Source of the DNA: an uncultured Flavobacteriaceae bacterium
Lineage (GTDB): Bacteria > Bacteroidota > Bacteroidia > Flavobacteriales > Flavobacteriaceae
Assembly: GCA_963697395.1 (NCBI GenBank)
Contig: CAVONX010000021.1
Location: 27,693-91,692 of the forward strand
Length of the DNA stretch: 64,000 nucleotides
Direction of reading: 5' to 3'
Below, piece after piece: positions 20,641 to 41,291 of this stretch (within the stretch, counting starts at the first letter, position 1; each line of letters opens with the position of its first letter). Below the pieces are notes generated by a model, which was not told the DNA's origin, did not search any database, and saw only the letters and a program-made list of their open reading frames with translations. The translations under genes and the position numbers were made by a program.

Positions 20641-23430
20641 TTGAGACGTATTTTTATCACCTTCCTTTTAATAACTTTTAGGGCCAATTGCCAGGAACTT
20701 CCGCCCATTCAAAATTTCTACCCTAAGGATTACAATGGCGAGAACCAAAACTGGGCTATTTCCCAATCTCCTGAAAAAATAATCTATGTAGCAAACAGCA
20801 AAGGATTATTAGAGTTTAATGGAGCAAGTTGGAAATTGTACCCTTCACCAAACGAATCGATCATGCGTTCTGTAAAAGTGGTGAACGACCGCATTTATAC
20901 GGGGTGCTTTATGGAGTTTGGTTATTGGCAGCAGAATGAATTCGGTACTTTGAACTATACGTCCTTATCTAAAAAACTAAAGATTAACCTTATTGAAGAT
21001 GAGGAATTTTGGAACATTATAAATATTGATGATTACATCGTATTTCAATCTCTAAAGCGGATATATATTTTAAATGTAAATAACGGTTCTTTAAATACGA
21101 TAGATTCCGAAAGTACCATCACCAAAATGTTCAAACTAAATGGCAAAATCTATTTTCAAAGAACTGGTGAGGGACTATTTAAAATTGAATCGGGCAAGGA
21201 TTTTTTGGTTTTTGATGATGCTATTGTAAAAAACGATGAGGTCATTAATATTTTCGGAAAGGATACCGGGCTGCTGGTTCTAAGTAAAAATAATGGTTTT
21301 TATCATCTCAATGAAGGGGCCTTGGTTGAGGCCAAAAACTTTCCGAACAAATTTTTAGCAGATTTAAGTCTGTACGATGGTATACAGCTAAATGACAAAA
21401 GTTTTGCGTTAGGTTCCATATCAAAAGGACTATTATACCTGAGTGCAGATGGGGAACTGATAAATCAAATTAATCAGGATGGGGGGTTGGCCAACAATAC
21501 GGTACTATCCCTTTTTGAAGATGTGGCCAATACATTATGGTTGGGTCTGGATTACGGGGTCGGTTATGTGAATCTTAAATCACCTTATCGAGTATTCAAC
21601 GATATCAAAGGAATCTTGGGAAGCGTTTATGCATCTGCCGTTTATAAGGGTAATCTTTACTTGGGAACAAATCAAGGATTGTTCTACAGGGAACTTGGTG
21701 AAAGTGATGGATTTGAGTTTATAAATGGGACACAAGGACAAGTTTGGTCCTTAACGGAACTTGACGGAAAGTTGATTTGTGGACATCATTCGGGCACTTT
21801 TCAAATTAAAGATGACCAAGCAACCAAAATTGCAAATATCCCGGGAACATGGAAGGTGGCCAAACTAACTAACAGGCCCAACCTATTGCTTCAAGGTAAT
21901 TATGATGGGCTCTATGTTTTGAATAAATCGGGTGATTCCTGGCAATTAAAGAATAAAATCAAAGGTTTTAACAATTCATCCAGATATTTTGAAACATTGG
22001 GCAATACTATTTTCGTGAACCACGAATATAATGGCGTTTTTGAGTTAGAGGTGGATGATGCGCTCATGGAGGTACAACAGCTTGCAAAAGATACCTTGAT
22101 AAAAGGTGCAAATTCAGGGATTGTGGCATACCACCAAAACTTATTGTATGCTTATAAAAAAGGAATTTTCAAATACAGTGAAAATGATGAAAGATTCGTC
22201 AAGGACAAGTTTTTAAGTATGGCCTTTAATGAGGACGAATATGAATCGGGTAAACTTGTGGTGGACGAAGAGGACCGTAAACTATGGATTTTTAACCAGT
22301 CCGACATAAGCTATTTAGAACCAGCAGGTTTGACGAATACATTGAAAATAGAAAAGGTGCCCCTTTCCATGGAAATACGGGATGGAATACTAGGATATGA
22401 AAATATAATTAAGCTAAATGATGTAGGCACTTATTTAATGGGAAAAACCTCAGGGTACATAACTTTTGATATAAATGAAATAAAGTCAAAAGATTTTAGT
22501 GTCTATTTGGGCGCTCTTGTGAATTTTAACAAAACGAAAGAAACGCTACTCAACAAAAAAATCAATGGTAATTTTAAAAGTACCGAAAATCATTTTAAAT
22601 TTTCTTTCTATGCCCCTGTTTACGATAAATCTTTATATACCAAGTACCAATATCGGTTAAATGGGATATACGATGACTGGAGCGATTGGTCTGAAAGGTC
22701 TCAGGTGACCTACGAAAATTTGCCCTTTGGGGAATATGTATTTCAAATCAGGGCAAAAATCGGGAATGATATTTCTAACAATACCGCCGAATATACTTTT
22801 ACCATTGCCAAACCGTGGTATATATCAAATGTTATGATTGCCCTTTATATACTGGGAGTACTATTGTTCTCATTTTTTATGCATATCATATATAAACAGT
22901 ATTACAAAAAGCAACGTCAAAAATTGATAGATAAGAGCAAACGTGATTTGGAGCTCAGGGAAGTTCAGAATGAAAAGGAAATCATAAAAATTAAAAACGA
23001 AAAATTGGAGATAGAGAATAAAAGCAAGAGAAAGGAATTGGCTGCATCCACCATGAGCATTATCAAAAAGAACGAACTACTTACCCAAATAAAGAATCAA
23101 TTAAAAAAGATTGAAGATAGAGATGGAATCAATAAGGTGATTAAAGTAATTGATAAGAACCTTGATCAAAACGATGATTGGGAAATGTTTAAAGAAGCCT
23201 TTAATAATTCGGAAAGTGAGTTTTTACGAAAAATAAAGTTCCTCCATCCTGAATTATCGCCTAACGACCTTAAATTATGTGCATACCTAAGATTGAATCT
23301 ATCTTCAAAAGAAATTGCCCAGTTGTTGAACATTACGCTAAAAAGTGTCGAAATCAAGCGTTATCGTCTTCGTAAGAAATTAGATTTAAAGCGCGAGGAT
23401 AATTTGGTCAACTATATATTGGAATTATAG
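20641..23430 (+). CDS. membrane-spanning one-component regulator: periplasmic beta-propeller/Y_Y_Y sensor, TM helix and LuxR-type HTH
   Basis: 929 aa. The track uses a TTG start, and there is no nearby in-frame ATG. The N-terminus is signal-like and is followed by two-component-regulator-propeller-type repeats. A Y_Y_Y region is present (YQYRLNGIYDDWSDWSERSQVTYENLPFGEYVFQIRA), then one TM helix (VMIALYILGVLLFSFFMHII) and a coiled coil. The C-terminus is a LuxR-type HTH (SSKEIAQLLNITLKSVEIKRYRLRKKL). There is no kinase or receiver domain. Confidence 0.85.
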   Translation: MRRIFITFLLITFRANCQELPPIQNFYPKDYNGENQNWAISQSPEKIIYVANSKGLLEFNGASWKLYPSPNESIMRSVKVVNDRIYTGCFMEFGYWQQNEFGTLNYTSLSKKLKINLIEDEEFWNIINIDDYIVFQSLKRIYILNVNNGSLNTIDSESTITKMFKLNGKIYFQRTGEGLFKIESGKDFLVFDDAIVKNDEVINIFGKDTGLLVLSKNNGFYHLNEGALVEAKNFPNKFLADLSLYDGIQLNDKSFALGSISKGLLYLSADGELINQINQDGGLANNTVLSLFEDVANTLWLGLDYGVGYVNLKSPYRVFNDIKGILGSVYASAVYKGNLYLGTNQGLFYRELGESDGFEFINGTQGQVWSLTELDGKLICGHHSGTFQIKDDQATKIANIPGTWKVAKLTNRPNLLLQGNYDGLYVLNKSGDSWQLKNKIKGFNNSSRYFETLGNTIFVNHEYNGVFELEVDDALMEVQQLAKDTLIKGANSGIVAYHQNLLYAYKKGIFKYSENDERFVKDKFLSMAFNEDEYESGKLVVDEEDRKLWIFNQSDISYLEPAGLTNTLKIEKVPLSMEIRDGILGYENIIKLNDVGTYLMGKTSGYITFDINEIKSKDFSVYLGALVNFNKTKETLLNKKINGNFKSTENHFKFSFYAPVYDKSLYTKYQYRLNGIYDDWSDWSERSQVTYENLPFGEYVFQIRAKIGNDISNNTAEYTFTIAKPWYISNVMIALYILGVLLFSFFMHIIYKQYYKKQRQKLIDKSKRDLELREVQNEKEIIKIKNEKLEIENKSKRKELAASTMSIIKKNELLTQIKNQLKKIEDRDGINKVIKVIDKNLDQNDDWEMFKEAFNNSESEFLRKIKFLHPELSPNDLKLCAYLRLNLSSKEIAQLLNITLKSVEIKRYRLRKKLDLKREDNLVNYILEL

Positions 23431-23454
23431 GGAACTTAACAAAGTCTTTTTCAG

Positions 23455-23489
23455 CCTTAACATCACCTGTTTACACCTTAACATTACCT
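23455..23489 (+). promoter_or_regulatory. direct repeat CCTTAACATYACCT x2 with 21-bp phasing (candidate operator)
   Basis: CCTTAACATCACCT (23455-23468) and CCTTAACATTACCT (23476-23489). A third partial copy, TTAACATTCC, lies at 23536-23545. All are in the 263-nt gap between the regulator gene and the first glycan-locus gene. Confidence 0.35.
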
Positions 23490-23693
23490 CTACAAGTTAA
23501 GTTTGTTGACCATAAAGAGTTTGTCAAAAACTTTTTTAACATTCCATCTAATCGTTAATACGGCTTACTGCTAAAGCGTTTTCGAATATCATTTTAACAA
23601 AAAAAGCAACCTTTTCTTACGATGTAGGTTTTTTGTAGTGGTATATTTTATTGTATTCATAATATATATTCGGAAATTTAGAGATAGAAAAAA

Positions 23694-26600
23694 ATGAATA
23701 TGGACACAATTCTTAGAAAACTACTAAAGCCACTATTTCTGCTCTTGGCAGTAAGTTTATCCGGGCAGTCGGCCAATGTTTCCGTTGTAAGTAATGAAGA
23801 GGGAATGAAATTGGTTGTAAACGGAGAAGATTTTATGATTAACGGTATGAATTGGGATTATATACCCATAGGAACAAATACCGTAAATGCCAATTTTTGG
23901 ACAAAGTCAGACGATGTGATTAAGGCCGGTCTTGATACCGAGATGTCACTTTTAAAAAACATGGGCGTAAATGTAATACGCCAGTACACTGGTGTTCCAG
24001 CAAAGTGGATTAAATATATCTACGAAAACTATGGTATTTATACCATGCTTAATCATTCCTTTGGGCGTTACGGATTAACCTTGGATGGGGTTTGGACACC
24101 GGTAACCATTTATGATGATGAAAAAACGGCAGCTTTTCTAATGGCCGAGATGGAAGAGTTGGTCAATGGTTATAAGAACACGCCAGGACTACTCATGTAT
24201 CTCCTGGGTAATGAAAATAATTACGGATTATTTTGGGCGGGTGCAGAAACCGAAGATTTCCCCGATGATGAAGAAGAAAAGAATTTCATAGGTGAAAAAC
24301 GTGGACGCCCCATGTATAGACTTATGAACGAAGCTGCAAAATTGATGAAGGCGGCTGACCCTTCCCACCCGGTTGCCATATGTAACGGGGATGTGCTCTT
24401 TATAGACATTATTGCAGAAGAATGTAAAGACGTGGATATCTATGGAACAAATACATACCGTGGGGCCTCATTCGGTGATATGTTTCAAGTGGTAAAGGAT
24501 AAGCTGAATAAGCCTATAATGTTTACAGAGTTTGGGGCCGATGCCTTCAACGCTATTGATAATAAGGAAGATCAATACTCACAAGCATATTATATGGTTG
24601 AAAACTGGAAAGAAATCTATGAAAATGCAGCAGGCCTGGGTAAAGCTGGCAACTCTTTAGGTGGATTTACATTTCAGTTTAGTGACGGTTGGTGGAAATT
24701 TGGTTTTGATGATCGGAAAAACGCTGATGTTCAAGATAATAATGCATCATGGTCCAATGGGGGGTATGCTAGGGATTTAGCTTTCGAAGGGGCCAACAAT
24801 ATGAATGAGGAATGGTTTGGTATTTGTGCAAAAGGGCAAACCGACCCCAGAGGTTTGTACGAATTATATCCTAGAGCGGCCTATTATGCCCTTAAGCAGG
24901 CACACCAGCTGAATCCTTATGAAGAACGTGTCGATGCTAACTTCGTTAGAAACTATTTTGCCAATATTAGCATAACGGATGCGGTGTTAAAGGCACGTGG
25001 CGATAAGGCCGCGTTAACTTCGGAGAAGAGTGATTTACTTCGTATCAGTAACCTTCAGGCAAAATTTTCAACCTTTAGTACAGGAGGCAACCTTCTTACC
25101 ACACCAGATAATGCGAATCCAGATGACCCCAATACCTTTCCTAATCAATTGGGTTTTGACCGTATGGAATCTTACTTTATAGGTGTGGAAGGAAAACCGG
25201 CGCCAAATATGAGGGCAGAAGTAAACGTCAATGTTGTTGGGAACGTCGCCCAAAATCCCATCAATGAAATTTTTTATGAAAACAATTCCCGTCCTTTAGA
25301 GGTAAATACCGATCAAGGAAATGTGCTCGTACAAGATGTAAACAGAATACGGGTGTATCAAGCGGAATTTGAATGGAATGAAAAGGAATTTGACTTAAGG
25401 GGTTTTTATAGGACAGGTCATTATCATTGGGGTTATGAAGGAGATTTTTTCGGTTTCTATCCAGAGGCCAATTATGGTCCAAATCTCGACATCTATAATG
25501 GCGAGATCTTAGGAATGGAGGTTGATGGTAAAGGTGCCCTAAAGGGGTTGAAAGCGGCAATCGGGCCTCAGTTATGGTGGGGTGCAAATCCTACTATGCT
25601 GTTCAAATACACTACCCACCTTGGCAAGTTCGGTGTAACGGGTATTTATCACAGAGATTTTGAAAAGGACGTTGTTTTGGATGAAAATGGCAGACGTACT
25701 TTAGACATTAATCAAACCCGTAGTGGTGTGATACCGCCATGGCCGACGGAACGAGCCGCTTTAGCCATAGAAAGAGAGTTTGGAAAATTTGGAGTTTCCC
25801 TAGGGGGTATTTGGAGCGGAAATCCATTAAACGGTATCTCATTTCAAGATGTTCGGGGTACCCCAGGTAACTACGTTGTTTTCGAAGATAGAATTCAATC
25901 AACGGACAATTGGGGCGGTAAGGCTAAAATAACATACGAAGGGGGCAAATTTAATTGGTATGGCCAAGCAGCGGCCATGGGGCTCATTGCCAATGGTGGT
26001 GCAGACCAAACGCTCACCTTTACGGGATGGAAATTGAAAGATACCGGAAGCGGTAATCAAATGAACATATTGTCTGGCTTTACATATTCTACTGGGAATT
26101 TTCAAATTGCACCCAATTTTTTATGGCAAAAGCCATTAGTAGATGCCATGCCAAATGATGTTCAAGGGCCTGGACGACTAAGGAACATTATTGACGATCC
26201 CTTTTCTGTTAGGGCTAACCGGGAAACCGTGGGTGGTGAACTGTTGCTGACTTTTGATCCAACCCCTGGTACATGGATGTATGAGTGGGATAACGACAGG
26301 TCAGAAGATGCTAAGTTTGCCATGAATTTAGGTTTTGTATATCGTCATCTACCAACAACACAAGATGCGCATATCGGATTCTTGGCCAATCGTACTTTTT
26401 TCGCCTTTCCAAATTCGGCACCAGCGGAAGACCTTTGGGAAGTGCATACCAGGATGGTTTCAAAACCCATGTCAGATTTAGGTTTGATAGCAAACTTATA
26501 TTATGGCAACGGACAGGCTAATGGGGACAGTGATCGCTTGATAAGGCGTTTTGGGGGAGATGTACGCATGTTGTACAAAAAATGGAAGGTACAATACACG

Positions 26601-26894
26601 CAAAAGATTAACGACTGGGGACCTTTTGATTATCACCGAGATTTCAACCTAACCTATCCTGTACAATTGATGCTGGATGTATCTACGACGCTTGGCAAAC
26701 CAGATTGGTTTATTTTACCTAGTACCCAAGTGGGAATAAGGGGTACATGGCGATCGTTGGATGAATTTTCTCCGAGATATGCTCCAAATAACGCTTTAGA
26801 ATTTGCCACGGAACCCATTTTAAGTCCGGTTGGGTTTGGAAATGGCAGCGAGTGGGAAATAATGACGTATGTGCACATCAATATCGGGAAATAA
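23694..26894 (+). CDS. secreted clan GH-A (beta/alpha)8 glycosidase fused to a ~640-aa putative outer-membrane beta-barrel
   Basis: 1066 aa with a signal peptide (LFLLLAVSLSGQSANV). The N-terminal ~400 aa carry a clan-A acid/base motif LLGNENNYG and nucleophile motif IMFTEFGADAF. The C-terminal half is Gly/Asn/Tyr/Trp-rich with many alternating amphipathic strands, up to the last residues (EWEIMTYVHINIGK). The GH family is unresolved by eye. Confidence 0.75.
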   Translation: MNMDTILRKLLKPLFLLLAVSLSGQSANVSVVSNEEGMKLVVNGEDFMINGMNWDYIPIGTNTVNANFWTKSDDVIKAGLDTEMSLLKNMGVNVIRQYTGVPAKWIKYIYENYGIYTMLNHSFGRYGLTLDGVWTPVTIYDDEKTAAFLMAEMEELVNGYKNTPGLLMYLLGNENNYGLFWAGAETEDFPDDEEEKNFIGEKRGRPMYRLMNEAAKLMKAADPSHPVAICNGDVLFIDIIAEECKDVDIYGTNTYRGASFGDMFQVVKDKLNKPIMFTEFGADAFNAIDNKEDQYSQAYYMVENWKEIYENAAGLGKAGNSLGGFTFQFSDGWWKFGFDDRKNADVQDNNASWSNGGYARDLAFEGANNMNEEWFGICAKGQTDPRGLYELYPRAAYYALKQAHQLNPYEERVDANFVRNYFANISITDAVLKARGDKAALTSEKSDLLRISNLQAKFSTFSTGGNLLTTPDNANPDDPNTFPNQLGFDRMESYFIGVEGKPAPNMRAEVNVNVVGNVAQNPINEIFYENNSRPLEVNTDQGNVLVQDVNRIRVYQAEFEWNEKEFDLRGFYRTGHYHWGYEGDFFGFYPEANYGPNLDIYNGEILGMEVDGKGALKGLKAAIGPQLWWGANPTMLFKYTTHLGKFGVTGIYHRDFEKDVVLDENGRRTLDINQTRSGVIPPWPTERAALAIEREFGKFGVSLGGIWSGNPLNGISFQDVRGTPGNYVVFEDRIQSTDNWGGKAKITYEGGKFNWYGQAAAMGLIANGGADQTLTFTGWKLKDTGSGNQMNILSGFTYSTGNFQIAPNFLWQKPLVDAMPNDVQGPGRLRNIIDDPFSVRANRETVGGELLLTFDPTPGTWMYEWDNDRSEDAKFAMNLGFVYRHLPTTQDAHIGFLANRTFFAFPNSAPAEDLWEVHTRMVSKPMSDLGLIANLYYGNGQANGDSDRLIRRFGGDVRMLYKKWKVQYTQKINDWGPFDYHRDFNLTYPVQLMLDVSTTLGKPDWFILPSTQVGIRGTWRSLDEFSPRYAPNNALEFATEPILSPVGFGNGSEWEIMTYVHINIGK

Positions 26895-26906
26895 AAAGAT
26901 AGTAAA

Positions 26907-28313
26907 ATGAGAAATAGAAAATATAGCAACGTAGGTTTTATACTTCTTTTTGGTTTGGGCATCATGCTTTTATCCAGTTGCGAAAGGGATTTTTCGGATG
27001 ATGTGGAATTTGCAAAATTCCCTGCAGATGGCGACGTGTTTTTGGATGCTTTTTCAGCAGGATTAGATTATTTTCCTTTTGTTGACGCTGGGGCAGACCC
27101 AGAAGCGTTCAGTGTGGATACGGATGAGGTTTTTGCGGGAGATGCTGCGATGCGCTTTGATGTACCGGCTTTTGGGAACGGTTTTGTTGGGGCCGCATTC
27201 AATACTTCGGCCAAAAGAGATCTCTCGGGTTTTGATGCGCTTACCTTTTATGCAAAGGCTTCACAAGCTGCAACCCTTGATGCCGTTGGGTTTGGTATTT
27301 CAGGTGAAACTAACAATAAATTTCAAGTGACGCTCAATGGTCTGGGAATCAGTACCAGATGGGAAAAATACGTCATCCCCATTCCAGATGCTTCAAAACT
27401 TACCGATCAGACTGGTTTGTTTTGGTTGGCAGAAGGAGCTTCTTTTGAAGGGGACGAAGGTGGTTATGTAGTATGGTTTGATGAAATAAAGTTTGAAAAG
27501 TTGGGTACCGTTGCACAATCAAGCCCTGCCATTTTTGCTGGTGAAGACCTTACAGAGCAATCTTTTACAGGGTCTACCATTGCAGTTAATGGTCTTTCCC
27601 AAACGTTTAACTTGGGTTCAGGCATCAATAGCACAGTGACCGCCGCACCTTCCTATTTTGATTTCACTTCATCTAATATTGAAGTGGCGAGAGTGAGCGA
27701 ACTAGGTGAAATTTCCATTATTGGAGAGGGTACCGTAGAGATAACAGCGCTTTTGGGGGGTGTGCTCGCAGAAGGCTCTTTAACGATAACGGCTAGCAGA
27801 GGTTTAGTAGCGGCACCTACGCCAACATTACCGCAATCCAATGTGAAATCATTGTTCAGTGATGCCTATGTCAACGAAACAGAAATTAATGCCACCCCTG
27901 GTTTTGGAGGCTCAACTACAGAAACAACCATTATTACCGCTAACGAGAACTCATTTTTAACGTACGCAAATAATAATTTCACAGGCATCCTTTTTGAAAA
28001 TACGGTAGATGCCTCTGAATTGACTTTCCTTCATGTTGACGTGTATGTTCAAGAAGCTGGTACCGAAGTTGGCATTCAAATTAGGGATGTGGGGGCAAAT
28101 CAACTAATTGAAACGGACCCTAATACGGGAAATCCCATAGTTGATGATAAAGATTTTAGGTTTACGCTTACAAATTTAACCGCAGGTCAATGGACGTCTT
28201 TCGAAATTCCATTAAGTGGGGATATTGCTGCACAAAAAAATAATCTCGGTGCTTTAATACTAACAGGTGGTCCAAATTTTATTTTGGACAATATATACTT
28301 CTACAAGGAGTAA
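26907..28313 (+). CDS. surface glycan-binding-protein-like lipoprotein (CBM-like, Big_2, CBM-like)
   Basis: 468 aa with lipobox GIMLLSSC|ERD. Two beta-sandwich-like modules flank a Big_2-type Ig segment (ARVSELGEISIIGEGTVEITALLGGVLAEGSLTITA). It has no catalytic motif. It starts 12 nt after the preceding gene. Confidence 0.65.
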   Translation: MRNRKYSNVGFILLFGLGIMLLSSCERDFSDDVEFAKFPADGDVFLDAFSAGLDYFPFVDAGADPEAFSVDTDEVFAGDAAMRFDVPAFGNGFVGAAFNTSAKRDLSGFDALTFYAKASQAATLDAVGFGISGETNNKFQVTLNGLGISTRWEKYVIPIPDASKLTDQTGLFWLAEGASFEGDEGGYVVWFDEIKFEKLGTVAQSSPAIFAGEDLTEQSFTGSTIAVNGLSQTFNLGSGINSTVTAAPSYFDFTSSNIEVARVSELGEISIIGEGTVEITALLGGVLAEGSLTITASRGLVAAPTPTLPQSNVKSLFSDAYVNETEINATPGFGGSTTETTIITANENSFLTYANNNFTGILFENTVDASELTFLHVDVYVQEAGTEVGIQIRDVGANQLIETDPNTGNPIVDDKDFRFTLTNLTAGQWTSFEIPLSGDIAAQKNNLGALILTGGPNFILDNIYFYKE

Positions 28314-28340
28314 TGGGGCCTATCTAAAGTAAAATGTAAG

Positions 28341-29171
28341 ATGAATAGAGAAAATATGAAACAATATAAAAGTATAGTGTTGGGATTCATGGCCATATTT
28401 CTAGTTTGCTGTGAAACGGAAGACACACAGACGGTCACCACATTTACCGAATTGGTCTTAGCCGAAGAATTTGATACGGATGGCCCAGTTAATTCTTCCG
28501 TCTGGGGATTTGAAATAGGAATTGGTGAAAACGGCTGGGGAAATCAAGAACTCCAGTACTACACGGACAGATCTGAAAATGTTACCGTCCAAAACGGAAA
28601 ACTGTTGATTACGGCCCAACAAGAATCTTTTGAAGGCTCCAGCTATACTTCAGCACGGTTGATCACAAAGGATAAGTTTGAACAAAAATACGGTCGTTTC
28701 GAAGCAAGAATCCGTCTCCCTTATGGAAAGGGTATTTGGCCCGCATTTTGGATGCTCGGAGCGGATATTGATGAGAATCCTTGGCCAGGAGCAGGTGAAA
28801 TAGACATCATGGAATATCGTGGGCAAAATCCTTCGGTTTTAATAGGTAGTGTGCATGGCCCTGGATATAATGGCGGAAACGCTATATCCAAAGAGTTTAC
28901 TCTTGAGAATGACCGCTTTGATACGGGCTTTCACATATTTGGAATAGAATGGGGTCCTGAATATATCAATTTTTATGTTGATGATGTTCTGTATAACCAG
29001 ATTACGCCAGAGGATGTAACAGGTCCTTGGGTATTTGACAAGCCCTTTTTTATTTTAATGAATCTTGCTGTTGGCGGCACATTTGTAGGTTCGCCCAATG
29101 CAGAAACGGTTTTCCCTCAGACCATGGTGGTAGACTATGTAAGAGTATATGATTATAACGAACTGTATTAA
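28341..29171 (+). CDS. GH16 endo-beta-1,3-glucanase (laminarinase-type) lipoprotein
   Basis: 276 aa with lipobox AIFLVCC|ETED. The GH16 catalytic motif ExDxxE is present as GEIDIMEYRG, together with WPAFWMLG. Confidence 0.9.
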   Translation: MNRENMKQYKSIVLGFMAIFLVCCETEDTQTVTTFTELVLAEEFDTDGPVNSSVWGFEIGIGENGWGNQELQYYTDRSENVTVQNGKLLITAQQESFEGSSYTSARLITKDKFEQKYGRFEARIRLPYGKGIWPAFWMLGADIDENPWPGAGEIDIMEYRGQNPSVLIGSVHGPGYNGGNAISKEFTLENDRFDTGFHIFGIEWGPEYINFYVDDVLYNQITPEDVTGPWVFDKPFFILMNLAVGGTFVGSPNAETVFPQTMVVDYVRVYDYNELY

Positions 29172-29188
29172 CAATAAACAAAAAACGA

Positions 29189-31510: not shown

Positions 31511-31611
31511 GACGAACTGATGTTTGATAGTTGAATTACCTATTGGACAGCTTATTACATAAATGATTTTGTTCCCTAACAAATAAAGGAACATCTCTTA
31601 AAAACCAAAAT

Positions 31612-31649: not shown

Positions 31650-31679
31650 AGATTTAACGAATAAAGGCAGGAATCGTCA

Positions 31680-34600: not shown

Positions 34601-35135
34601 AGCCATTAACGACCAAGAGAGTGAAGAAACCATTGGACGTTTGTTAGAGCATTATTATGAGATTAATGAAGGTATTGGAGTCCATAAATCGCCAGAACTG
34701 TACGGAGCTTTCCCTACGGATCCCTATTCTCATACTCCAGCAGGAAAAGGGGCACAGCAACCAGGAATGACCGGTCAAGTAAAAGAGGATATCCTATGCA
34801 GGTTTGGGGAATTAGGTGTTTTTGTGGAAAATGGGGTTCTTATTTTTAGACCAAGGCTGTTACGGAAAGAAGAGTTCTTGAAAGCTCCGGCCACATTTAC
34901 CTATACTTCATTACGATCAAAAAAGAAGCAGTTGCAACTAGAGAAGCATAGCCTTTGTTTTACCTATTGTCAAGTACCCATAATTTACAAATTATCCGGT
35001 GATACTGGAATGATAGTACAGTTTAACAATGGTAAATTCCTATCATTTAGTGATTTAAAACTTGATGCCTCAACAAGTAACAAGGTATTTGAAAGAACTA
35101 ATGAAATCGAACAAATTATTGTATCGATCAATTAA
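31680..35135 (+). CDS. large cytoplasmic glycan phosphorylase-like protein; candidate beta-1,3-glucan phosphorylase (GH149/GH94-like)
   Basis: 1151 aa with no signal peptide. Its size and locus context match the bacterial GH149-type enzymes reported in laminarin loci. Motifs such as RPEWNDANNALVGNG and PGMTGQVKE resemble the (alpha/alpha)6 phosphorylase catalytic region. The assignment comes from memory of the family and is not a search result. Confidence 0.55.
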   Translation: MSQKENNIDSSKKRHMQKEITCKLVRFENENYYKISNNDAMRPFFMSIVSESNHWMFISSNGGLSAGRKDSDNALFPYYTDDKITESFDTTGSKTIFQVTSSGHNSAWEPFSNRYTGVFNITRNLYKNEYGNKVVFEEINHDLGLTYQYQWNSSNLFGFVRKSKLINHAERIVQVKVLDGIQNIMPFGVAASTQQASSNLVDAYKRSELIKDSGLGIFALSAIIVDKAEPSEALKANVVWSLGLDNPKFLLSALQLDDFRLGNDISEEVDVKAERGAYFAVTEVELNSGNEKEWAIVADVNKSSAKVISISEKIKSKQWDWKAVFEDVELGTKNLLKLANASDSKQLTADKRRNTRHYSNVMFNIMRGGIFDNNYTIEKEDFVQYISKANNKVYDKNIETLTKLPQTFEQKHLKAIALKSDDKDFSRLCFEYLPLKFSRRHGDPSRPWNKFSINTVTEEGKKVLDYEGNWRDIFQNWEALVHSYPSFIDSMIFKFLNATTFDGYNPYRVTKDGFDWETIEPDDPWSYIGYWGDHQIIYLLKFLEFSENHHPGNLVNYLSKKIFVYANVPYKIKPYQAILKNPKDTIIFDEEQDASIREDRLHLGADGALLKNPQASIYKVNLLEKLLATVMAKVSNFIPEGGIWMNTQRPEWNDANNALVGNGVSMVTLYYLRRFLTFFKELISNTSDGGLSVSIELKNFFDSVLGLLQQHTSCLNRNITNTERKTIMDGLGNAASSYRSNIYDNGFSAKEGNIAKNELLRFTELVLLFLDHSIKANKRSDNLYHAYNLMTVENDKEVSISYLSQMLEGQVAALSSGYLSGIESVQLLDGLKNSKLFREDQYSYLLYPNKDLPKFIDRNNIPSEKIEKSELINQLLTDGNISIVERDITGGYHFNGSFNNADSLKNALSKLPQSQYGDLIAKDEGFLFSIFESIFDHKSFTGRSGTFYGYEGLGSIYWHMVSKLLLAVQETCWKAINDQESEETIGRLLEHYYEINEGIGVHKSPELYGAFPTDPYSHTPAGKGAQQPGMTGQVKEDILCRFGELGVFVENGVLIFRPRLLRKEEFLKAPATFTYTSLRSKKKQLQLEKHSLCFTYCQVPIIYKLSGDTGMIVQFNNGKFLSFSDLKLDASTSNKVFERTNEIEQIIVSIN

Positions 35136-35147: not shown

Positions 35148-36431
35148 ATGAAGAACATACATCTAAATATAGGAAACATCGCCTTGTTACTATTACTAGT
35201 GATGTTCTCTTGTAAATCCGAGTCAAAAAATGAAAACCAAAAGGAAACCGTGACAGAAAAGAAGAGTATCAGAGCAGCGGAGATTCTTGGGAATCCTGAT
35301 TATTTAGCCATGTCCTACGGGGGATATAGACATGCCGACCATGATATAGAGCCTACCATATCAGAATTGAAAGAGGATATGAAAATCCTCTCGGCCATGG
35401 GCATAAAAATGATACGGACCTATAAGGTGCATCTGCCACATGCGGCCAATGTACTAGAGGCAATTAGTGAACTTAAAAAAGAAGATCCTGCGTTTGAAAT
35501 GTACGTCATGCTTGGTGCGTGGATAGACTGTAAGTACGCGTGGACAGATCAAGAGCCCGATCACGATCAGGAAAGTGAACGCAATGCCGTAGAAATAAAG
35601 GAGACCGTGCGCTTGGCCAAGGCTTATCCGGATATTGTAAAGGTAATTGCCGTGGGCAACGAGGCCATGGTGAAATGGGCGGCAAGTTATTTTGTGCAAC
35701 CTGGGGTTATTTTAAAATGGGTAAATCATCTGCAGGAATTAAAAAAAGCAGGGGAATTGACCGAAGACCTGTGGATTACCAGTTCAGATAATTTTGCATC
35801 TTGGGGTGGGGGAGATGCCGAGTACCACGTAGAGGACTTGAACAAACTTATTGCTGCGGTAGATTTTCTATCCGTGCACACCTATCCTATGCATGATACG
35901 CACTACAACCCAGCTTTCTGGGGTGTGCCGCTAGATGAAATAGCACTTTCCAAGGAGGAAAAAATTGAGGCGTCCATGCTCCGGGCCAAGAAATATGCCA
36001 TCGCTCAGTATCAAAGTGTAAAGGCCTATATGCAAAACCTAGGGATAAACAAGCCCATACATATCGGGGAAACCGGATGGGCAACCATGGCAAGCGGCCA
36101 CTATGGCCCCAATGGTTCTAAAGCTACAGACGAGTATAAGGAAGCCCTTTATTATAAATACATGCGAGATTGGACCAATAGTGAAGGTATTTCATGTTTT
36201 TATTTTGAAGCTTTTGACGAACCTTGGAAAGATGCAGCAAACCCCAGTGGGTCAGAGAACCATTTTGGCTTGATCACGGTAGACGGCCGGGCAAAATTTG
36301 CACTATGGGCTAGGGTAGATGAAGGCATATTTAAGGGCATATCCCGTGGTGGTAAGCCCATAACAAAAACGTATGATGGTGACAGGCAAAAATTAATGAA
36401 AGAAGTTTTACTGCCCCCATCAAAACAATGA
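35148..36431 (+). CDS. GH17 beta-1,3-glucanase lipoprotein
   Basis: 427 aa with lipobox LLVMFSC|KSES. The GH17 acid/base motif is AVGNEAMV and the nucleophile motif is HIGETGWAT. Confidence 0.85.
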   Translation: MKNIHLNIGNIALLLLLVMFSCKSESKNENQKETVTEKKSIRAAEILGNPDYLAMSYGGYRHADHDIEPTISELKEDMKILSAMGIKMIRTYKVHLPHAANVLEAISELKKEDPAFEMYVMLGAWIDCKYAWTDQEPDHDQESERNAVEIKETVRLAKAYPDIVKVIAVGNEAMVKWAASYFVQPGVILKWVNHLQELKKAGELTEDLWITSSDNFASWGGGDAEYHVEDLNKLIAAVDFLSVHTYPMHDTHYNPAFWGVPLDEIALSKEEKIEASMLRAKKYAIAQYQSVKAYMQNLGINKPIHIGETGWATMASGHYGPNGSKATDEYKEALYYKYMRDWTNSEGISCFYFEAFDEPWKDAANPSGSENHFGLITVDGRAKFALWARVDEGIFKGISRGGKPITKTYDGDRQKLMKEVLLPPSKQ

Positions 36432-37975
36432 AAAATCAGATGATACATAAAGATGGAATCATATCAAAAACAAAGGTTTTTGGCGTAGTTCCGGTATTTT
36501 TATTGTTCATTTTTACAGGCTGTATGAAAAGAGTTAATCAGTTGGATATCAAGGTGTACGAAACTTCGGCAAGCGGAAACAAGCTCACTGAAATAACAAC
36601 CTTTCAAAAGGTTAAAGACCCTATAGCCATAAAATTGATTCCAAACGAAAAATACCAAACCATAACAGGTTTTGGAGGGTCTTTTACAGAAGCATCCGCT
36701 TCTTTATTGAACCGGCTGGGTACAAAGAATAGAAACAAGGTTTTAGAAGCCTATTTTGGCAATGAGGGTGCCAAATATTCCCTTACGCGGACGCATATGA
36801 ATTCTTGTGACTTTTCACTAGGTAATTATTCATATGCACCGGTTGAAGGAGATCTGCAATTGGAACATTTTTCGATCAAAGAGGACAAGGACGATATTAT
36901 TCCCATGATACAGGAGGCTATGGCCATTTCAAGGGATGGGTTCAAGATTATTTCTTCCCCGTGGACCGCCCCGCCATGGATGAAGGATAATAAAGACTGG
37001 CGCGGTGGCCAACTGTTGCCCGAATATAGAGATACTTGGGCACTGTTCTTTTCAAAATATTTAGCTGCTTATAAAGCTGAAGGCATCAATATTTGGGGCT
37101 TTACAGTAGAGAATGAGCCCTTGGGCAATGACAGTAATTGGGAAAGTATGCATTTCACGCCCCAGGAGATGACCAGCTTTGTTCAAAATCACTTGGGCCC
37201 GAGATTGGAAGCCGATGGGCATGAAGTTAAGATTTTGGGGTATGACCAAAACCGAGAGCATTTGAAAGGGTGGGTTGATGTGATGTATGAAAATGAAGCA
37301 TCGTCAAAATACTTTGATGGCACGGCCATACACTGGTACGCTAGTACTTATGATGTTTTTCCGGATGCACTACAATATGCACACAACAAAGCACCCTATA
37401 AACACCTAATCCAGACGGAAGCATGCGTAGATGCAGAGGTTCCTAAATGGAAAGAGGATGCTTGGTATTGGAAAAAAGAAGCTACGGATTGGGGATGGGA
37501 TTGGGCACCAGAAAAGGATAAACACCTACATCCTAAATATGCACCTGTTAATAGATATGCTAGGGATATTATAGGTTGTTTGAACAATTGGGTAGACGGG
37601 TGGATTGACTGGAATATGGTTTTGGACAAACAAGGCGGCCCTAACTGGTTCAAAAATTGGTGTGTTGCCCCTGTCATTGTGGATCCAGAAAAGGATGAGG
37701 TCTATTTTACGCCTATTTATTATACTCTGGCACATTTTAGTAAATATATAAGACCGGGTGCCGTGCGTATTGGAGTAGAGAGTGCTTCAGAAGATCTCTT
37801 GGTCACCGCTGCAAAAAATCCAGATGGTTCAATAGCCGTTGTGCTATTTAATGAAGGCAACGAGCCAAAAGGTATAGAATTATCCTCATCTGGGAAGAGA
37901 GTGGGAATTAATATCAATGGTAAGGCTATACAAACAGTGGTCATTCCTAATATAGATAACAAAGAAACCAACTAA
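36428..37975 (+). CDS. GH30 glycosidase lipoprotein (beta-1,6-glucosidase/glucanase type)
   Basis: 515 aa with lipobox LFIFTGC|MKR. GH30 motifs are present: GFGGSFTEASA, acid/base FTVENEP and nucleophile LIQTEAC. An ATGA overlap joins it to the upstream GH17 gene. Confidence 0.85.
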   Translation: MKNQMIHKDGIISKTKVFGVVPVFLLFIFTGCMKRVNQLDIKVYETSASGNKLTEITTFQKVKDPIAIKLIPNEKYQTITGFGGSFTEASASLLNRLGTKNRNKVLEAYFGNEGAKYSLTRTHMNSCDFSLGNYSYAPVEGDLQLEHFSIKEDKDDIIPMIQEAMAISRDGFKIISSPWTAPPWMKDNKDWRGGQLLPEYRDTWALFFSKYLAAYKAEGINIWGFTVENEPLGNDSNWESMHFTPQEMTSFVQNHLGPRLEADGHEVKILGYDQNREHLKGWVDVMYENEASSKYFDGTAIHWYASTYDVFPDALQYAHNKAPYKHLIQTEACVDAEVPKWKEDAWYWKKEATDWGWDWAPEKDKHLHPKYAPVNRYARDIIGCLNNWVDGWIDWNMVLDKQGGPNWFKNWCVAPVIVDPEKDEVYFTPIYYTLAHFSKYIRPGAVRIGVESASEDLLVTAAKNPDGSIAVVLFNEGNEPKGIELSSSGKRVGININGKAIQTVVIPNIDNKETN

Positions 37976-37986: not shown

Positions 37987-40362
37987 ATGTCAACACAAGA
38001 ACTCGAGGTAAGAAATAAAGTGCCATTTGGCCAAAAGGTGGCTTTTGGGGTAGGCATGTTTGCAAATCAAATGTTTCCTGCTATCCTTGGAATATTTATG
38101 GTAGTCCTTGTACAATCATTCGGTTTTAACGGGTGGTTGTGGTCTCTTGTTTATTTTTTTCCAAGGATTTTTGATTCCATTACGGACCCTATTATGGGCT
38201 TTATTTCCGATAATACCAAATCCAAATGGGGTAGACGGAAGCAGTATGTTTTAATAGGCGCTATTTTAATGGGTGTCGCCTTTACCTTGATGTGGCAGTT
38301 ATATACCGATGATTCCTTACAGTATAATTTTTGGTATTTCTTTTTATGGTCCATTGTATTTTATTTAGGTCTAACATTTTTTAGTGTACCCTATGTGGCT
38401 ATGGGCTATGAAATGAGTGATGATTTTCACGAAAGAACCAATATTATGGCCATTGCTCAATGGATTGGCCAGTGGGCATGGGTTATTGCCCCTTGGTTTT
38501 GGGTGATTATGGATGATCCAGATTGGTTTCCGTCTCAAGACGTTGCTGTTCGCGAATTGGCAGTATGGGTGGCTGTGCCTTGTGCAATTGCTGCCATGGT
38601 GCCCGCTATATTTATTAAAAGTAAATCTACCCTTGAGGAAAATTATGAACCATTGACGGTCTCCAATATTGGTGGTAGTCTTACACAAATTTGGGAAAGC
38701 TTTAAAGATGCGTTTAAAATAGAAGAGTTTAGAAGGATTTGCGGTGCTACTTTTTTGATTTTTAATGCATTTAACACCGTAGCTGCATTAACTTATTTTG
38801 TTATTGTTTATAGGCTATTTAATGGTGATGCCGCCGCCACGGGTATCTGGGTTGCATTATTTGGTTGTATTGGAGCCTTGGGGACAACCTTCATCGTCAT
38901 TCCAGTTGTTGCCTGGATGTCAAAAAAAATGGGCAAGAAAAAAGCTTTCATGTGGGCCCAAGGTATTTCTCTCGTTGGGTATATTATGATGTATTTTCTT
39001 TTTATACCAGGAAAACCTTGGCTTTATATTATTGCACTACCCTTTTTCTCTTTCGGTATAGGGAGTTTATTTACCATAATGATGTCAATGACAGCTGATG
39101 TAATCGATATAGATGAATTGAATTCTGGTAAAAGACGAGAAGGTATTTTTGGTGCTATTTACTGGTGGATGGTTAAAGTTGGCTTTGCAATAGCTGGTGC
39201 GCTCAGTGGTGTAATTATTGGGGTCGTAGGCTTTGATCCAGCATTAGCAACGACGGAACAACAAACAGCAGTTGATGGTCTACATGCGTTCTTCTGCTTT
39301 TTTCCAGCGGTAGGTACTATTATCGCAATGCTCATAATGAAGAATTATGATGTTTCCGAAGAACGTTCAAATGAGATACGTACAGCATTGGACGATAAAA
39401 AAGCAGTAAAGCTTGCTAGTTATGCCAAGATGCGAGAATTATCTGATATCGATTTGAATTTGTTATCGGAGCAGGAGATTAAACTAAAATATCCAAGCTT
39501 TTTCACTACGGCTGTTGACTATGGTAAATTGAGTCATAAAGAGATTAAAAGAGAATTTAAGCGGGTTTTTGAAAACGGAATGACCGGTATTTGTTTTAGT
39601 GCTTACGAACCCGGGCAGTCACCTGGTGATATTATCACGGAACGTCAAATAAGAAAACGTTTAGAAGTGCTAAAGGGACATACCCAGTGGATACGGATTT
39701 TTTCTTGTACCAATGGACACGAACTAATTCCTGGAATAGCCAAGGAACTAGGGTTTAAAACATTAATGGGCGCCTGGATAAGTAATGATTTGGATCAGAA
39801 TCAAAAAGAGATAAAATCTTTGGTTAAACTTATAAATGATGGGGTTGTGGATATGGCTTCCGTTGGTAATGAGGTATTGTACAGAAATGAATTGAATGAA
39901 CAGAACATCATTGAATACATCAATCAAGTTAAAAAGCAAAGCAGTGGAACGCCTATTGGGTATGTGGATGCCTACTACGAATTTATCAACAAGCCAGAAC
40001 TAACTAATGCATGTGACGTTATCTTGGCGAATTGCTATCCCTTCTGGGAAGGGGCAACTGATAAAGTAGCCGGCTTTCACTTACAGGAAATGTATCGTAG
40101 AACCCTTGAAGCCGCAAAAGGCAAAAAGGTTATAATAGCCGAAACGGGATGGCCAAGCAAGGGGCAAACGGTACAAGGAGCACATCCTTCAGAGGAAAAT
40201 GTAATGAAGTACTTCATTAAAACACAGCTCTGGGCGCAAAAGGAACAGGTAGATATGTTTTATTTTGCCTCTTTTGATGAATCCTGGAAAATTCATTCAG
40301 AAGGTTGGGCCGGAACCTCGTGGGGATTATGGGATAAAAACGAAAATTTTAAATTCGATTAG
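37987..40362 (+). CDS. fusion protein: GPH/MFS-type sugar:cation symporter (aa 1 to ~455) plus a cytoplasmic GH17 domain (aa ~515-791)
   Basis: 791 aa. The N-terminal half has about 12 TM helices with GPH-family features (DSITDPIMGFISDNTKSKWGRRKQY). After a ~60-aa linker comes a complete GH17 domain with SVGNEVLYRN (acid/base) and IIAETGWPSKG (nucleophile). Confidence 0.85.
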   Translation: MSTQELEVRNKVPFGQKVAFGVGMFANQMFPAILGIFMVVLVQSFGFNGWLWSLVYFFPRIFDSITDPIMGFISDNTKSKWGRRKQYVLIGAILMGVAFTLMWQLYTDDSLQYNFWYFFLWSIVFYLGLTFFSVPYVAMGYEMSDDFHERTNIMAIAQWIGQWAWVIAPWFWVIMDDPDWFPSQDVAVRELAVWVAVPCAIAAMVPAIFIKSKSTLEENYEPLTVSNIGGSLTQIWESFKDAFKIEEFRRICGATFLIFNAFNTVAALTYFVIVYRLFNGDAAATGIWVALFGCIGALGTTFIVIPVVAWMSKKMGKKKAFMWAQGISLVGYIMMYFLFIPGKPWLYIIALPFFSFGIGSLFTIMMSMTADVIDIDELNSGKRREGIFGAIYWWMVKVGFAIAGALSGVIIGVVGFDPALATTEQQTAVDGLHAFFCFFPAVGTIIAMLIMKNYDVSEERSNEIRTALDDKKAVKLASYAKMRELSDIDLNLLSEQEIKLKYPSFFTTAVDYGKLSHKEIKREFKRVFENGMTGICFSAYEPGQSPGDIITERQIRKRLEVLKGHTQWIRIFSCTNGHELIPGIAKELGFKTLMGAWISNDLDQNQKEIKSLVKLINDGVVDMASVGNEVLYRNELNEQNIIEYINQVKKQSSGTPIGYVDAYYEFINKPELTNACDVILANCYPFWEGATDKVAGFHLQEMYRRTLEAAKGKKVIIAETGWPSKGQTVQGAHPSEENVMKYFIKTQLWAQKEQVDMFYFASFDESWKIHSEGWAGTSWGLWDKNENFKFD

Positions 40363-40382
40363 CGTACTTCAATAGAAATAAT

Positions 40383-41291
40383 ATGTCATATAGAGAAGGT
40401 CATCATTTTACCCTTGCCAAGAACAATTATAGCGGGCATACGGGAGTAGATTTTAATAAGGTCACAAATAGCGGGCTAAAGGATTTATGGTTAGAAACCT
40501 TGCAAAATGGAATGCACGGGCTTTGCTTTAGCATGTATGAGGACGGGCAAAAACCAGGTGATATCATCACCGAAGAACAAGTGGCCCGACGTATAAAAAT
40601 AATTAAGCCCTACACAAAATGGGTCCGCTCATTTTCTTGTATTGAGGGCAATGAACATATTCCGAAAATCGCTAAGGAAAATGGACTTAAAACCATGGTC
40701 GGGGCTTGGTTAAGTGAAGATTTAGAACTTAACGAAAAAGAGATGGAGGGGTTGATTGCCCTTGCCAAGTCAGGTTATGTTGATATTGCTGCGGTGGGTA
40801 ACGAAGTGTTGTACCGTAACGATTTAACTAAAGAACAGTTGTTAGGGTATATACAGCGCGTTAAAGATGCACTTCCGGATGTTGAGGTTGGGTATGTAGA
40901 TGCCTATTATGAATTTTCGGTACATCCAGAATTGGTAGACGCTTGTGATGTTGTATTATCTAACTGCTATCCTTATTGGGAGGGTTGTCCGCAAGAGTTT
41001 TCCTTAAATCATATGCAACAGATGTATGGTCAAGCAACCGATGCGGCAAGAGGTAAAAAAGTTGTTATTACGGAAACAGGTTGGCCCAGTCAAGGGGAAA
41101 GTCTCCGTGGTGCTCATTCCTCCAAGGAAAACGCCATGAAATACTTTATCAATAGTCAAGTTTGGTCGGAAAAAGAAAATGTTGAAATGTTTTATTTTTC
41201 CTCTTTTGATGAGTCCTGGAAAATAGGAGATGAAGGAGAAGTTGGTGCCTATTGGGGCTTATGGGATAAACATGAAAAATTGAAGTTTTGA
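40383..41291 (+). CDS. cytoplasmic GH17 family protein (stand-alone paralog of the transporter-fused domain)
   Basis: 302 aa with no signal peptide. It has AVGNEVLYRN and VITETGWPSQG and is collinear with residues ~520-791 of 37987..40362. Confidence 0.85.
   Translation: MSYREGHHFTLAKNNYSGHTGVDFNKVTNSGLKDLWLETLQNGMHGLCFSMYEDGQKPGDIITEEQVARRIKIIKPYTKWVRSFSCIEGNEHIPKIAKENGLKTMVGAWLSEDLELNEKEMEGLIALAKSGYVDIAAVGNEVLYRNDLTKEQLLGYIQRVKDALPDVEVGYVDAYYEFSVHPELVDACDVVLSNCYPYWEGCPQEFSLNHMQQMYGQATDAARGKKVVITETGWPSQGESLRGAHSSKENAMKYFINSQVWSEKENVEMFYFSSFDESWKIGDEGEVGAYWGLWDKHEKLKF

Follow-up and report, generated by a model that had tools for sequence, protein, structure and literature searches.

A beta-glucan locus that lacks SusC/SusD and encodes a predicted fusion of a laminarinase-like domain with an outer-membrane barrel

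How could laminarin cross the outer membrane with the help of a gene cluster that encodes neither SusC nor SusD? Laminarin is among the largest carbon fluxes of the ocean, and its uptake by Bacteroidota is modelled, annotated (by predictors of polysaccharide utilization loci, PULs) and quantified (by SusC/D metaproteomics) on the assumption that SusC and SusD (together SusCD) take part. The question is raised by a 64-kb stretch of DNA from an uncultured Flavobacteriaceae bacterium (assembly GCA_963697395.1, contig CAVONX010000021.1, positions 27,693 to 91,692), which was analysed as a whole and which we call the window. Positions 20641 to 41291 of the window hold a locus of co-directional genes for beta-glucan use, all on the + strand. 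The second gene of this locus, open reading frame 2 (ORF2), in all likelihood combines a laminarinase-like domain with a membrane barrel, as judged from its predicted structure. Whether this barrel is a TonB-independent import channel for laminari-oligosaccharides, as we propose from the same model, we hold to be an evenly balanced question.

A sequence-only reading of this DNA had claimed that the locus lacks SusC, SusD and any TonB-dependent receptor. This claim was borne out. A Pfam scan of every ORF of at least 150 amino acids in the window gave no match to the Plug, TonB_dep_Rec, CarboxypepD_reg and SusD families, and the SusC and SusD proteins of related loci were readily detected by the same search. 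The reading was also right in its coordinates and gene content, which were checked with Pfam and, for the locus genes, with NCBIfam. It had counted 12 ORFs; the ORF listing gives 10 of at least 200 amino acids between 20641 and 41291. It had further stated that no ORF is a SusC-like TonB-dependent barrel, and here it missed a candidate for an outer-membrane transporter: ORF2 is predicted to form a 26-stranded outer-membrane barrel, though not of the SusC type, and stands in the position of SusC, while ORF3, a CBM-bearing lipoprotein, stands in that of SusD. Since the strict definition of a PUL requires an adjacent susC/susD pair and none is found in the window, the locus is a gene cluster for carbohydrate-active enzymes (CAZymes) and not a PUL.

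ORF2 and its lipoprotein partner

The N-terminus of ORF2, MNMDTILRKLLKPLFLLLAVSLSGQSA, reads as a Sec signal peptide. It is followed by a TIM-barrel domain (amino acids ~29-440, nucleotides 23778-25013) and a linker helix (amino acids 427-448). For the 634 residues from position 433 to 1066 there is no Pfam match at E<=10. The last 626 residues were searched against 1.84 billion cluster representatives (50% identity), and members retrieved in this way, 23-92% identical to ORF2, made up the alignment for AlphaFold2. The resulting model has a mean predicted local distance difference test score (pLDDT) of 86.3 and contains 26 long, continuous antiparallel strands at amino acids 449-1065 (nucleotides 25038-26888). 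A shallow alignment of 25 close homologues (74-92% identity) gave a pLDDT of 47.7, and that model was usable for secondary structure only. Sequence searches of the PDB with the barrel, by single sequence and by profile, had no match, and the fold search alone detected one: in Foldseek the C-terminal domain matches the barrel of BtuB3, a TonB-dependent transporter of Bacteroides (E 3e-9, probability 1.0).

Several features of the model and of the family are those of an outer-membrane protein. The strands are joined by short turns of 2, 3, 6, 2, 2, 2, 3, 2, 21, 2, 2 and 12 residues, which alternate in the model with long loops of 20, 36, 33, 7, 30, 7, 6, 26, 31, 25, 7, 11 and 28 residues. The dyad hydrophobicity across the alignment is 0.70 versus 0.30 for the two faces of the strands and 0.44/0.28 for loop windows. 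At their C-terminus most distant homologues have the canonical outer-membrane protein signal, Y-x-[FYW]-x-[FYW], as in YFKYSF, YYELNF, YYRFVF and YLSVSW. The named relatives of ORF2 all come from diderm phyla (Bacteroidota, Myxococcota and Gemmatimonadota). Altogether 494 representatives match the barrel. Most of them are two-domain proteins, some consist of the barrel only and one has an extra N-terminal CBM4_9 domain. Signal-like N-termini occur throughout the family, and the barrel-only homologues of ~590 amino acids carry signal peptides of their own. The glycosidase domain is probably periplasmic if the model is followed: with the end of the C-terminal strand and the short turns on the periplasmic side and with an even number of strands, the N-terminus of the barrel and thus the glycosidase domain would also come to lie in the periplasm.

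The sizes of ORF2 and ORF3 (1066 and 468 amino acids) had suggested that they might be a misread SusC/SusD pair. This possibility was rejected by Pfam, NCBIfam and hhalign. ORF2 has no Pfam match to CarboxypepD_reg (PF13715), Plug (PF07715) or TonB_dep_Rec (PF00593), and hhalign gives it a probability of 0.3-0.4% against a profile of 13 SusC sequences. The mature N-terminus, ANVSVVSNEEGMKLVVNG, forms a conserved beta-hairpin of the TIM-barrel domain in the model, and a short motif resembling a TonB box is hard to judge by sequence. We saw no separate TonB-box segment in the sequence or in the model, a view which a short motif could escape. As neither a plug nor a separate TonB-box segment was seen in ORF2, it is presumably TonB-independent.

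The N-terminal domain is predicted to be laminarinase-like and closest to the endo-beta-1,3-glucanases of families GH158 and GH157. Its best folds in a Foldseek search of the PDB are GH158(Pro) (E 7e-15, probability 1.0), LaGH157 with laminaribiose and the endo-laminarinase BuGH158, and GH2 structures ranked below these. The model has the (beta/alpha)8 fold of clan GH-A together with the conserved acid/base and nucleophile glutamates, as in the fold of GH158. These residues, E174 (in GNE) and E279 (in TEFG), are invariant in close homologues and ~90% conserved in the family as a whole. By sequence the domain does not join GH158: E values are 0.02-0.04 over ~90 residues and the identity is 13-14% in the structural alignment. 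The known GH158 and GH157 enzymes (BuGH158, 6pal; GH158(Pro), 9oro/9p26; LaGH157, 9g5g) share with ORF2 the fold, the NE acid/base, the TEFG-type nucleophile and the location in beta-1,3-glucan loci. They are, however, either soluble proteins or lipoproteins, and their C-terminal domain is Ig-like or of another kind, whereas ORF2 has a predicted membrane barrel in this place. The current annotation of ORF2 as GH2 was considered and rejected. Pfam finds a weak Glyco_hydro_2_C match only (31.6 bits, amino acids 39-298) and no GH2_N or Ig domain, and the NCBIfam beta-galactosidase model scores 27 bits (cutoff 1284).

ORF3 begins a median of 12 nt after ORF2 (71 loci). Its N-terminal ~300 amino acids are specific to ORF3, and its C-terminal part (amino acids ~298-468) is a CBM-like module, 28-34% identical to the repeat module of the surface glycan-binding proteins (SGBPs) encoded next to SusD. 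Longer orthologues contain several copies of the module, two in locus L016 and four in the Saprospiraceae locus L048. For an SGBP of Christiangramia, laminarin-binding "CBMxx" repeats with the same repeat organisation have been reported. The module of ORF3 may thus be of a laminarin-binding type, as far as its sequence can tell. Pfam lists three matches for ORF3 at E 0.005-0.14, all under the gathering cutoffs, and no match to SusD_RagB or the SusD-like TPR families (PF07980, PF14322, PF12771) even at E<=10. Nor did ORF3 give a sequence match in the PDB or any similarity to the PKD/CBM protein of the locus. Acidic residues follow the lipidated cysteine in ORF3 as well as in the GH16 and PKD/CBM lipoproteins. 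Such an acidic stretch is typical of surface-exported lipoproteins in Bacteroidota.

Distribution and control of the ORF2 unit

The ORF2 family is large. It has more than 5,000 matches, annotated as "glycosidase / GH2 TIM barrel", and a genome scan finds it in at least 597 species. Across the genera of the Flavobacteriaceae, with Croceitalea nearest, the proteins are 74-92% identical, and the identity is still 66-71% in Saprospiraceae, Lewinellaceae and Chitinophagales. We compared the gene order of 81 loci. Among the genes of the locus, conservation is highest for ORF2 (median identity 71%), and in essentially all of the loci ORF2, ORF3 and the GH16 gene are contiguous. The presence of SusCD was judged in 59 loci, those whose upstream flank measures 8 kb or more. 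In 43 of these there is no SusCD within 8-10 kb, and the genes are BguR, ORF2, ORF3, GH16, PKD/CBM, GH149 or GH3, GH17, GH30, MFS-GH17 and GH17. The layout that the sequence-only reading had singled out is therefore neither peculiar to the window nor an artefact of the assembly. As a side observation, loci which do have SusCD (e.g. L020, 8542-9429) contain between the SGBP gene and ORF2 an ORF of ~295-320 amino acids without a Pfam family. In Kordia and Chitinophagales a GH16-containing protein of 543-552 amino acids, similar to that ORF, takes its place.

Outside the Bacteroidota, homologues of ORF2 are found in beta-glucan clusters of Myxococcota and Gemmatimonadota, where they are the sole outer-membrane candidate. 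To our knowledge these phyla are without SusCD. In an Archangium-like myxococcote the homologue (P0125, 46% identity) lies between a GH1 gene and two lipoprotein genes, adjoined by an ABC oligosaccharide importer, GH16 and a ROK regulator. A second homologue (P0130, 40% identity) belongs to a cluster of GH17, GH1, the homologue itself, a lipoprotein, ROK and an ABC importer, and a third (P0154, 31% identity) is followed by GH16 and a lipoprotein. The homologues outside the Bacteroidota are followed by small lipoproteins of 207-217 amino acids, some of which share a C-terminal motif; their similarity to ORF3 is weak (E 0.004-0.09). A different context was seen for one barrel-only homologue (P0211, 593 amino acids with its own signal peptide). 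On a metagenomic contig (L084, 4165-5946) it is located directly downstream of the F, G and I genes of a type II secretion system and not in a beta-glucan cluster.

The regulator encoded upstream of ORF2 has Pfam matches to Y_Y_Y (amino acids 661-722) and to a helix-turn-helix (HTH) domain (amino acids 886-914), and none to HisKA, HATPase or REC domains. A transmembrane (TM) segment, YISNVMIALYILGVLLFSFFMHIIY, is seen in the translation, and a long periplasmic region precedes Y_Y_Y. This architecture agrees with that of BguR, the activator of the laminarin PUL of Formosa agariphila (preprint 10.64898/2026.01.10.698779). By its predicted domains the regulator fits the definition of a BguR-type one-component regulator that adjoins a beta-glucan locus.

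An unbiased k-mer search of the related loci yielded the consensus ATGTATGTTTTTTGT. Nearly every related locus, of either architecture, has this element ahead of ORF2, and where SusC is present the element also precedes SusC. The exact 14-mer occurs in 33 loci, solely at the positions upstream of ORF2 and of SusC. In the window the consensus has a single match, ATGTAgGTTTTTTGT, and there is no copy ahead of the GH149 gene. As the same element precedes ORF2 and SusC, ORF2 heads a unit of its own, and the locus in the window consists of the ORF2 unit alone. We therefore predict that ATGTATGTTTTTTGT is a control signature common to the ORF2 and SusC units and a candidate target of BguR. A direct repeat, CCTTAACAT[C/T]ACCT, was also considered as BguR operator. 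It has two copies 21 bp apart in the intergenic region between BguR and ORF2 (23455-23489) and elsewhere a single copy, in L016; it was rejected because it is not conserved in the related loci.

Between Flavobacteriia and Saprospiria the structural genes of the locus are 60-76% identical and the regulator just 27-29%. Conserved structural genes next to a divergent regulator suggest that the operon moves as a module. The GC content is 0.42-0.44 from ORF2 to the PKD/CBM gene (24000-32000), 0.33-0.37 upstream and 0.36-0.41 in the part from GH149 to GH17. Taken together, the contrast in GC content and the contrast in identity between structural genes and regulator suggest a horizontal spread of the operon.

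A possible route for laminarin and its alternatives

It is very likely that ORF2 and its locus have a role in the use of beta-1,3-glucans. We suggest that uptake could proceed in the following steps. At the cell surface, laminarin would be bound and nicked by the GH16 enzyme, the PKD/CBM4 protein and ORF3. The fragments could then cross the outer membrane through the 26-stranded barrel of ORF2, for which TonB would not be needed. At the periplasmic mouth of the barrel the fused GH158/157-like endo-beta-1,3-glucanase domain would cut the fragments, and by this cutting an inward concentration gradient would be kept. Periplasmic GH17 and GH30 enzymes might trim and debranch the products. The MFS-GH17 fusion would import short oligosaccharides and cleave them at the inner membrane, and the cytoplasmic GH17 enzyme and the GH149 phosphorylase could complete the breakdown. 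Such a scheme would place a channel-enzyme fusion at each membrane. In a more general form, which we put forward tentatively and at somewhat less than even chances, ORF2 and ORF3 would be a widespread, unrecognised two-component uptake module that consists of a TonB-independent 26-stranded channel with a fused periplasmic endo-beta-1,3-glucanase and of a CBM lipoprotein which caps or serves the channel. The module would take in laminari-oligosaccharides by hydrolysis-driven facilitated diffusion, without SusCD in most of its carriers among Flavobacteriaceae and Saprospiraceae and in Myxococcota and Gemmatimonadota.

Several points weigh against this proposal. Channel function, substrate and topology of ORF2 are all read from a predicted structure. 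The predicted template modelling score (pTM) of the model is just 0.60, so that the relative orientation of the two domains is not reliable. The C-terminus of the Flavobacteriaceae clade, ...HINIGK, has no terminal aromatic residue, being the same strand (TYVHINI) with a GK extension. The sequence was found in metagenomic DNA runs only and in no RNA runs. In 16 of the 59 loci there is a SusC match upstream, usually with SusC, SusD, SGBP and the ORF of ~300 amino acids between BguR and ORF2. Since these loci contain both an ORF2 unit and a SusCD unit, ORF2 and ORF3 are not simply a substitute for SusCD; they need not be an import route and may complement it. The idea of a SusCD-independent entry route, already voiced in the sequence-only reading, is thus a reasonable hypothesis, but not in the sense of a plain replacement. 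Finally, no more than 64 kb of the genome lies within the window, and Flavobacteriaceae carry many SusCD pairs. Maribacter forsetii, whose laminarin genes are dispersed, induces an unlinked SusCD pair when laminarin is the substrate (PMC11345257).

Import of laminarin fragments could therefore be the task of a SusC/SusD pair at another site in the genome. Next to this pair, ORF2 would then be just a laminarinase tethered to the outer membrane, with the barrel as its anchor or scaffold. It is mainly the induced, unlinked pair of Maribacter forsetii which keeps this explanation alive. The 16 loci where ORF2 and ORF3 stand beside a dedicated SusCD unit, the limited part of the genome inspected and a TonB gene close by, at 49155-49877, speak for it as well. 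However, 26 strands are excessive for an anchor where a lipid would do, as in the neighbouring GH17 and GH30 enzymes. Moreover, the majority of the loci have no SusCD at hand, and homologues with a lipoprotein partner exist in the SusCD-less Myxococcota and Gemmatimonadota. We regard this explanation as rather unlikely.

An N-terminal passenger followed by a C-terminal barrel formally fits type V secretion. ORF2 might accordingly be an autotransporter-like surface laminarinase whose barrel translocates and anchors the glycosidase domain, which would act together with GH16 on polymeric laminarin. The neighbouring GH16, ORF3 and PKD/CBM proteins are indeed surface-type lipoproteins, and the extra N-terminal CBM4_9 domain of one distant homologue would be most sensible outside the cell. 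But the barrels of known autotransporters are 12- or 16-stranded, not 26-stranded, and a folded TIM barrel of ~45 kDa is an unlikely passenger. The strand parity and the pattern of short turns and long loops put the N-terminus of the barrel into the periplasm, and no autotransporter family was matched in Pfam. An autotransporter is thus in our view improbable. Still far less probable is the absence of any dedicated route, with GH16 products (degree of polymerization 2-4) diffusing through general porins and the C-terminal region of ORF2 being a soluble, beta-rich accessory domain: the poor model from the shallow alignment and the want of Pfam and PDB sequence matches for this region would fit, but the deeper alignment gives a confident model of 26 amphipathic strands connected by hairpins, and the relatives' C-terminal signal, the Foldseek match to the barrel of a TonB-dependent transporter and the diderm origin of all named relatives stand against it.

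If ORF2, in the commonest large laminarin locus the gene of highest conservation, is a channel-enzyme fusion of the outer membrane with a lipoprotein partner of its own, many "SusCD-less CAZyme clusters" would have to be regarded as uptake systems that are complete, and the widespread annotation as "GH2/GH0" would be wrong with functional consequence. A new class of outer-membrane glycan transporters, which Bacteroidota share with other diderms, would become testable. In algal blooms the "GH0/GH2" genes of laminarin PULs rank with those expressed most strongly; should the uptake module exist in its general form, current SusC/D-based annotation and proteomic proxies would therefore miss much of the marine laminarin turnover. 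Even if the barrel does no more than tether a laminarinase, the fusion of a glycoside hydrolase to a 26-stranded barrel is an architecture which we did not find in the literature searched.

The locus in detail and its relation to known systems

Features of the beta-glucan locus, with positions in the window
Feature	Position	Strand	Observations
BguR-type regulator	20641-23430	+	signal peptide, beta-propeller sensor region, Y_Y_Y, one TM helix, LuxR/GerE HTH
Candidate operator/promoter core ATGTAgGTTTTTTGT	23622-23636	+	58 nt before the start codon of ORF2
ORF2, 1066 amino acids	23694-26894	+	signal peptide, clan GH-A TIM barrel, linker helix, predicted 26-stranded beta-barrel
ORF3, lipoprotein, 468 amino acids	26907-28313	+	LSSC|ERDFSDD; C-terminal CBM-like module
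GH16 endo-beta-1,3(4)-glucanase, probable surface lipoprotein	28341-29171	+	FLVCC|ETED; Pfam GH16 8e-27
PKD + CBM4_9 surface glycan-binding lipoprotein	29189-31510	+	Pfam PKD_4, CBM_4_9
GH149 beta-1,3-glucan phosphorylase, cytoplasmic	31680-35135	+	no signal peptide; NF058639
GH17 endo-beta-1,3-glucanase, lipoprotein, MlGH17A/FbGH17A orthologue	35148-36431	+	VMFSC|KSE; Pfam GH17
GH30_1-type beta-1,6-glucanase/glucosidase (debranching)	36428-37975	+	lipoprotein signal FTGC|MKR; Pfam GH30 7e-77, GH30C
GPH/MFS_2 inner-membrane symporter (amino acids 20-457) fused to cytoplasmic GH17 (amino acids ~508-791)	37987-40362	+	Pfam MFS_2 6e-64 and GH17; TIGR00792
Cytoplasmic GH17, 302 amino acids	40383-41291	+	no signal peptide; Pfam GH17

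The enzymes of the locus are assigned with different firmness. The GH149 phosphorylase scores 1787 bits with NF058639 (cutoff 1150) over positions 2-1134 of 1134 and is thus recognized at the equivalog level. The GH30 protein reaches 264 bits with the NCBIfam model of the endo-1,6-beta-glucanase BT3312, which is under the equivalog cutoff. The first GH17 gene matches the position of the characterised MlGH17A and the last one that of the transglycosylase MlGH17B (PMC13188888). The latter GH17 protein is 54% identical to amino acids 508-790 of the MFS-GH17 fusion and is a paralogue of this part. The PKD/CBM4_9 protein consists of PKD, CBM4_9, two copies of a 166-residue module and a C-terminal CBM4_9-like module, and its CBM4 resembles that of Thermotoga Lam16A (PDB 1gui). 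We observed within this gene a tandem duplication of 498 bp at 29975-30975 (2.0 copies, 98% identical, Tandem Repeats Finder). The two near-identical modules are its product, and the expansion of the module seems to be very recent.

The intergenic gaps of 12, -4, 11 and 20 nt that the sequence-only reading gave for the genes from GH149 onwards recur in the ORF listing, and RNA folding upheld its terminator (dG -15.5 kcal/mol, z = -4.0). The terminator-like hairpin lies at 31611-31643, between the envelope genes and GH149. It has a 10-bp stem and is followed by ACUUUUU up to 31650; in detail z is -3.99, and 0 of 200 shuffled sequences fold as well. A consensus terminator scanner missed it, probably because its 13-nt loop exceeds the limit of 3-8 nt of this program.

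Some features around the locus are worth recording. Directly downstream, at 41596-42399, there is a PorP/SprF-family gene of the type IX secretion system (T9SS) in which the first ~28 positions of the profile, corresponding to the signal peptide, are missing. The preceding stretch (41292-41595) contains in frame ...LLAVTGATAQQ, which resembles the end of a signal peptide, and before it a stop codon without an ATG, GTG or TTG start in between. The gene could have a rare start codon or be truncated. No gene for a T9SS cargo with a type-B C-terminal domain is adjacent to it. Also just downstream of the locus, at 42504-43901, a GH109-like/GFO_IDH_MocA oxidoreductase with a twin-arginine signal is encoded, which is weakly similar to BT_2158-type glycoside 3-dehydrogenases. 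On the - strand, at 57985-60547, one circularly permuted ATP-grasp protein is split over two overlapping ORFs. Profile positions 1-220 fall to 59459-60547, and positions 210-374 together with an Alpha-E domain fall to 57985-59685. This looks like a frameshifted gene or one with programmed frameshifting, and it belongs to a transglutaminase/DUF2126/ATP-grasp cluster at 52915-63885. Finally, two tandem paralogous TPR histidine kinases of 730 amino acids (His_kinase and HATPase_c) followed by a LytTR response regulator are encoded at 4800-10004.

The laminarin PULs known as variant B or variant 1 (Polaribacter Hel1_33_49, Formosa Hel1_33_131 and F. agariphila) have the same enzyme set and order and the same BguR-type regulator as the locus described here. 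The shared order is GH16, PKD/CBM, GH149 (or GH3), GH17, GH30_1, MFS-GH17 and GH17. In the canonical variant B, however, the regulator is separated from ORF2 by a unit of SusC, SusD and SGBP, and this unit is lacking in the window. We read the region as a BguR-controlled laminarin (beta-1,3/1,6-glucan) locus of this published type, reduced to the ORF2-led unit; the even chance given above applies to this reading taken together with import through ORF2. The SusCD-less architecture of the window is also that of the Muricauda clusters among our loci (L003-L012). A paper on Muricauda lutaonensis and nine further genomes of this genus presents such a cluster as a "laminarin PUL"; it names ORF2 a "GH2 beta-glycosidase" and is silent on outer-membrane transport (PMC13188888). 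In equivalent laminarin PULs an unclassified "GH0" is listed. This is probably ORF2. In the literature searched we found no paper that describes the barrel of ORF2 or a fusion of a barrel with a glycoside hydrolase. Thus, the type of locus is already published and common, and the part of interest is ORF2 with its predicted barrel, which the sequence-only reading overlooked.

There is a likeness of ORF2 and ORF3 to SusC and SusD. In both cases a barrel protein of the outer membrane, by prediction in the case of ORF2, is ~1000 amino acids long and is followed, 12 nt on, by a surface lipoprotein of ~470 amino acids; the pair opens a regulated glycan operon, with the same ATGTATGTTTTTTGT element ahead, and the predicted barrel of ORF2 is structurally like that of TonB-dependent transporters. 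But SusC has 22 strands and ORF2 a predicted 26, the plug of SusC is replaced by an N-terminal glycosidase, and ORF3 has no SusD or TPR signature.

The LamB maltoporin, the ChiP chitoporin, CymA and KdgM are TonB-independent outer-membrane channels which belong to catabolic regulons and admit oligosaccharides made outside the cell. They would be the functional analogues of the proposed ORF2 channel. Unlike this channel, they have 12-18 strands, are not fused to an enzyme and do not depend on a lipoprotein partner, and we detected no Pfam or sequence relationship between ORF2 and these substrate-specific porins. In architecture LptD/LptE comes closer: LptD combines a barrel of 26 strands with a periplasmic domain at its N-terminus, has in LptE a lipoprotein partner of ~200 amino acids and serves the export of lipopolysaccharide. 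The size of LptE is close to that of the lipoproteins (207-217 amino acids) next to ORF2 homologues outside the Bacteroidota. This is an architectural analogy only, as sequence and function are unrelated, and an LptE-like insertion of ORF3 into the barrel is unsupported.

The closest parallel in principle is encoded in the same locus. The MFS-GH17 fusion, noted for Formosa by Unfried et al. 2018 (PMC6246565), covalently joins a conduit to a beta-1,3-glucanase on its trans side, although its conduit is an alpha-helical symporter of the inner membrane. ORF2, for which we found no such description in the literature searched, would be the counterpart of this fusion in the outer membrane.

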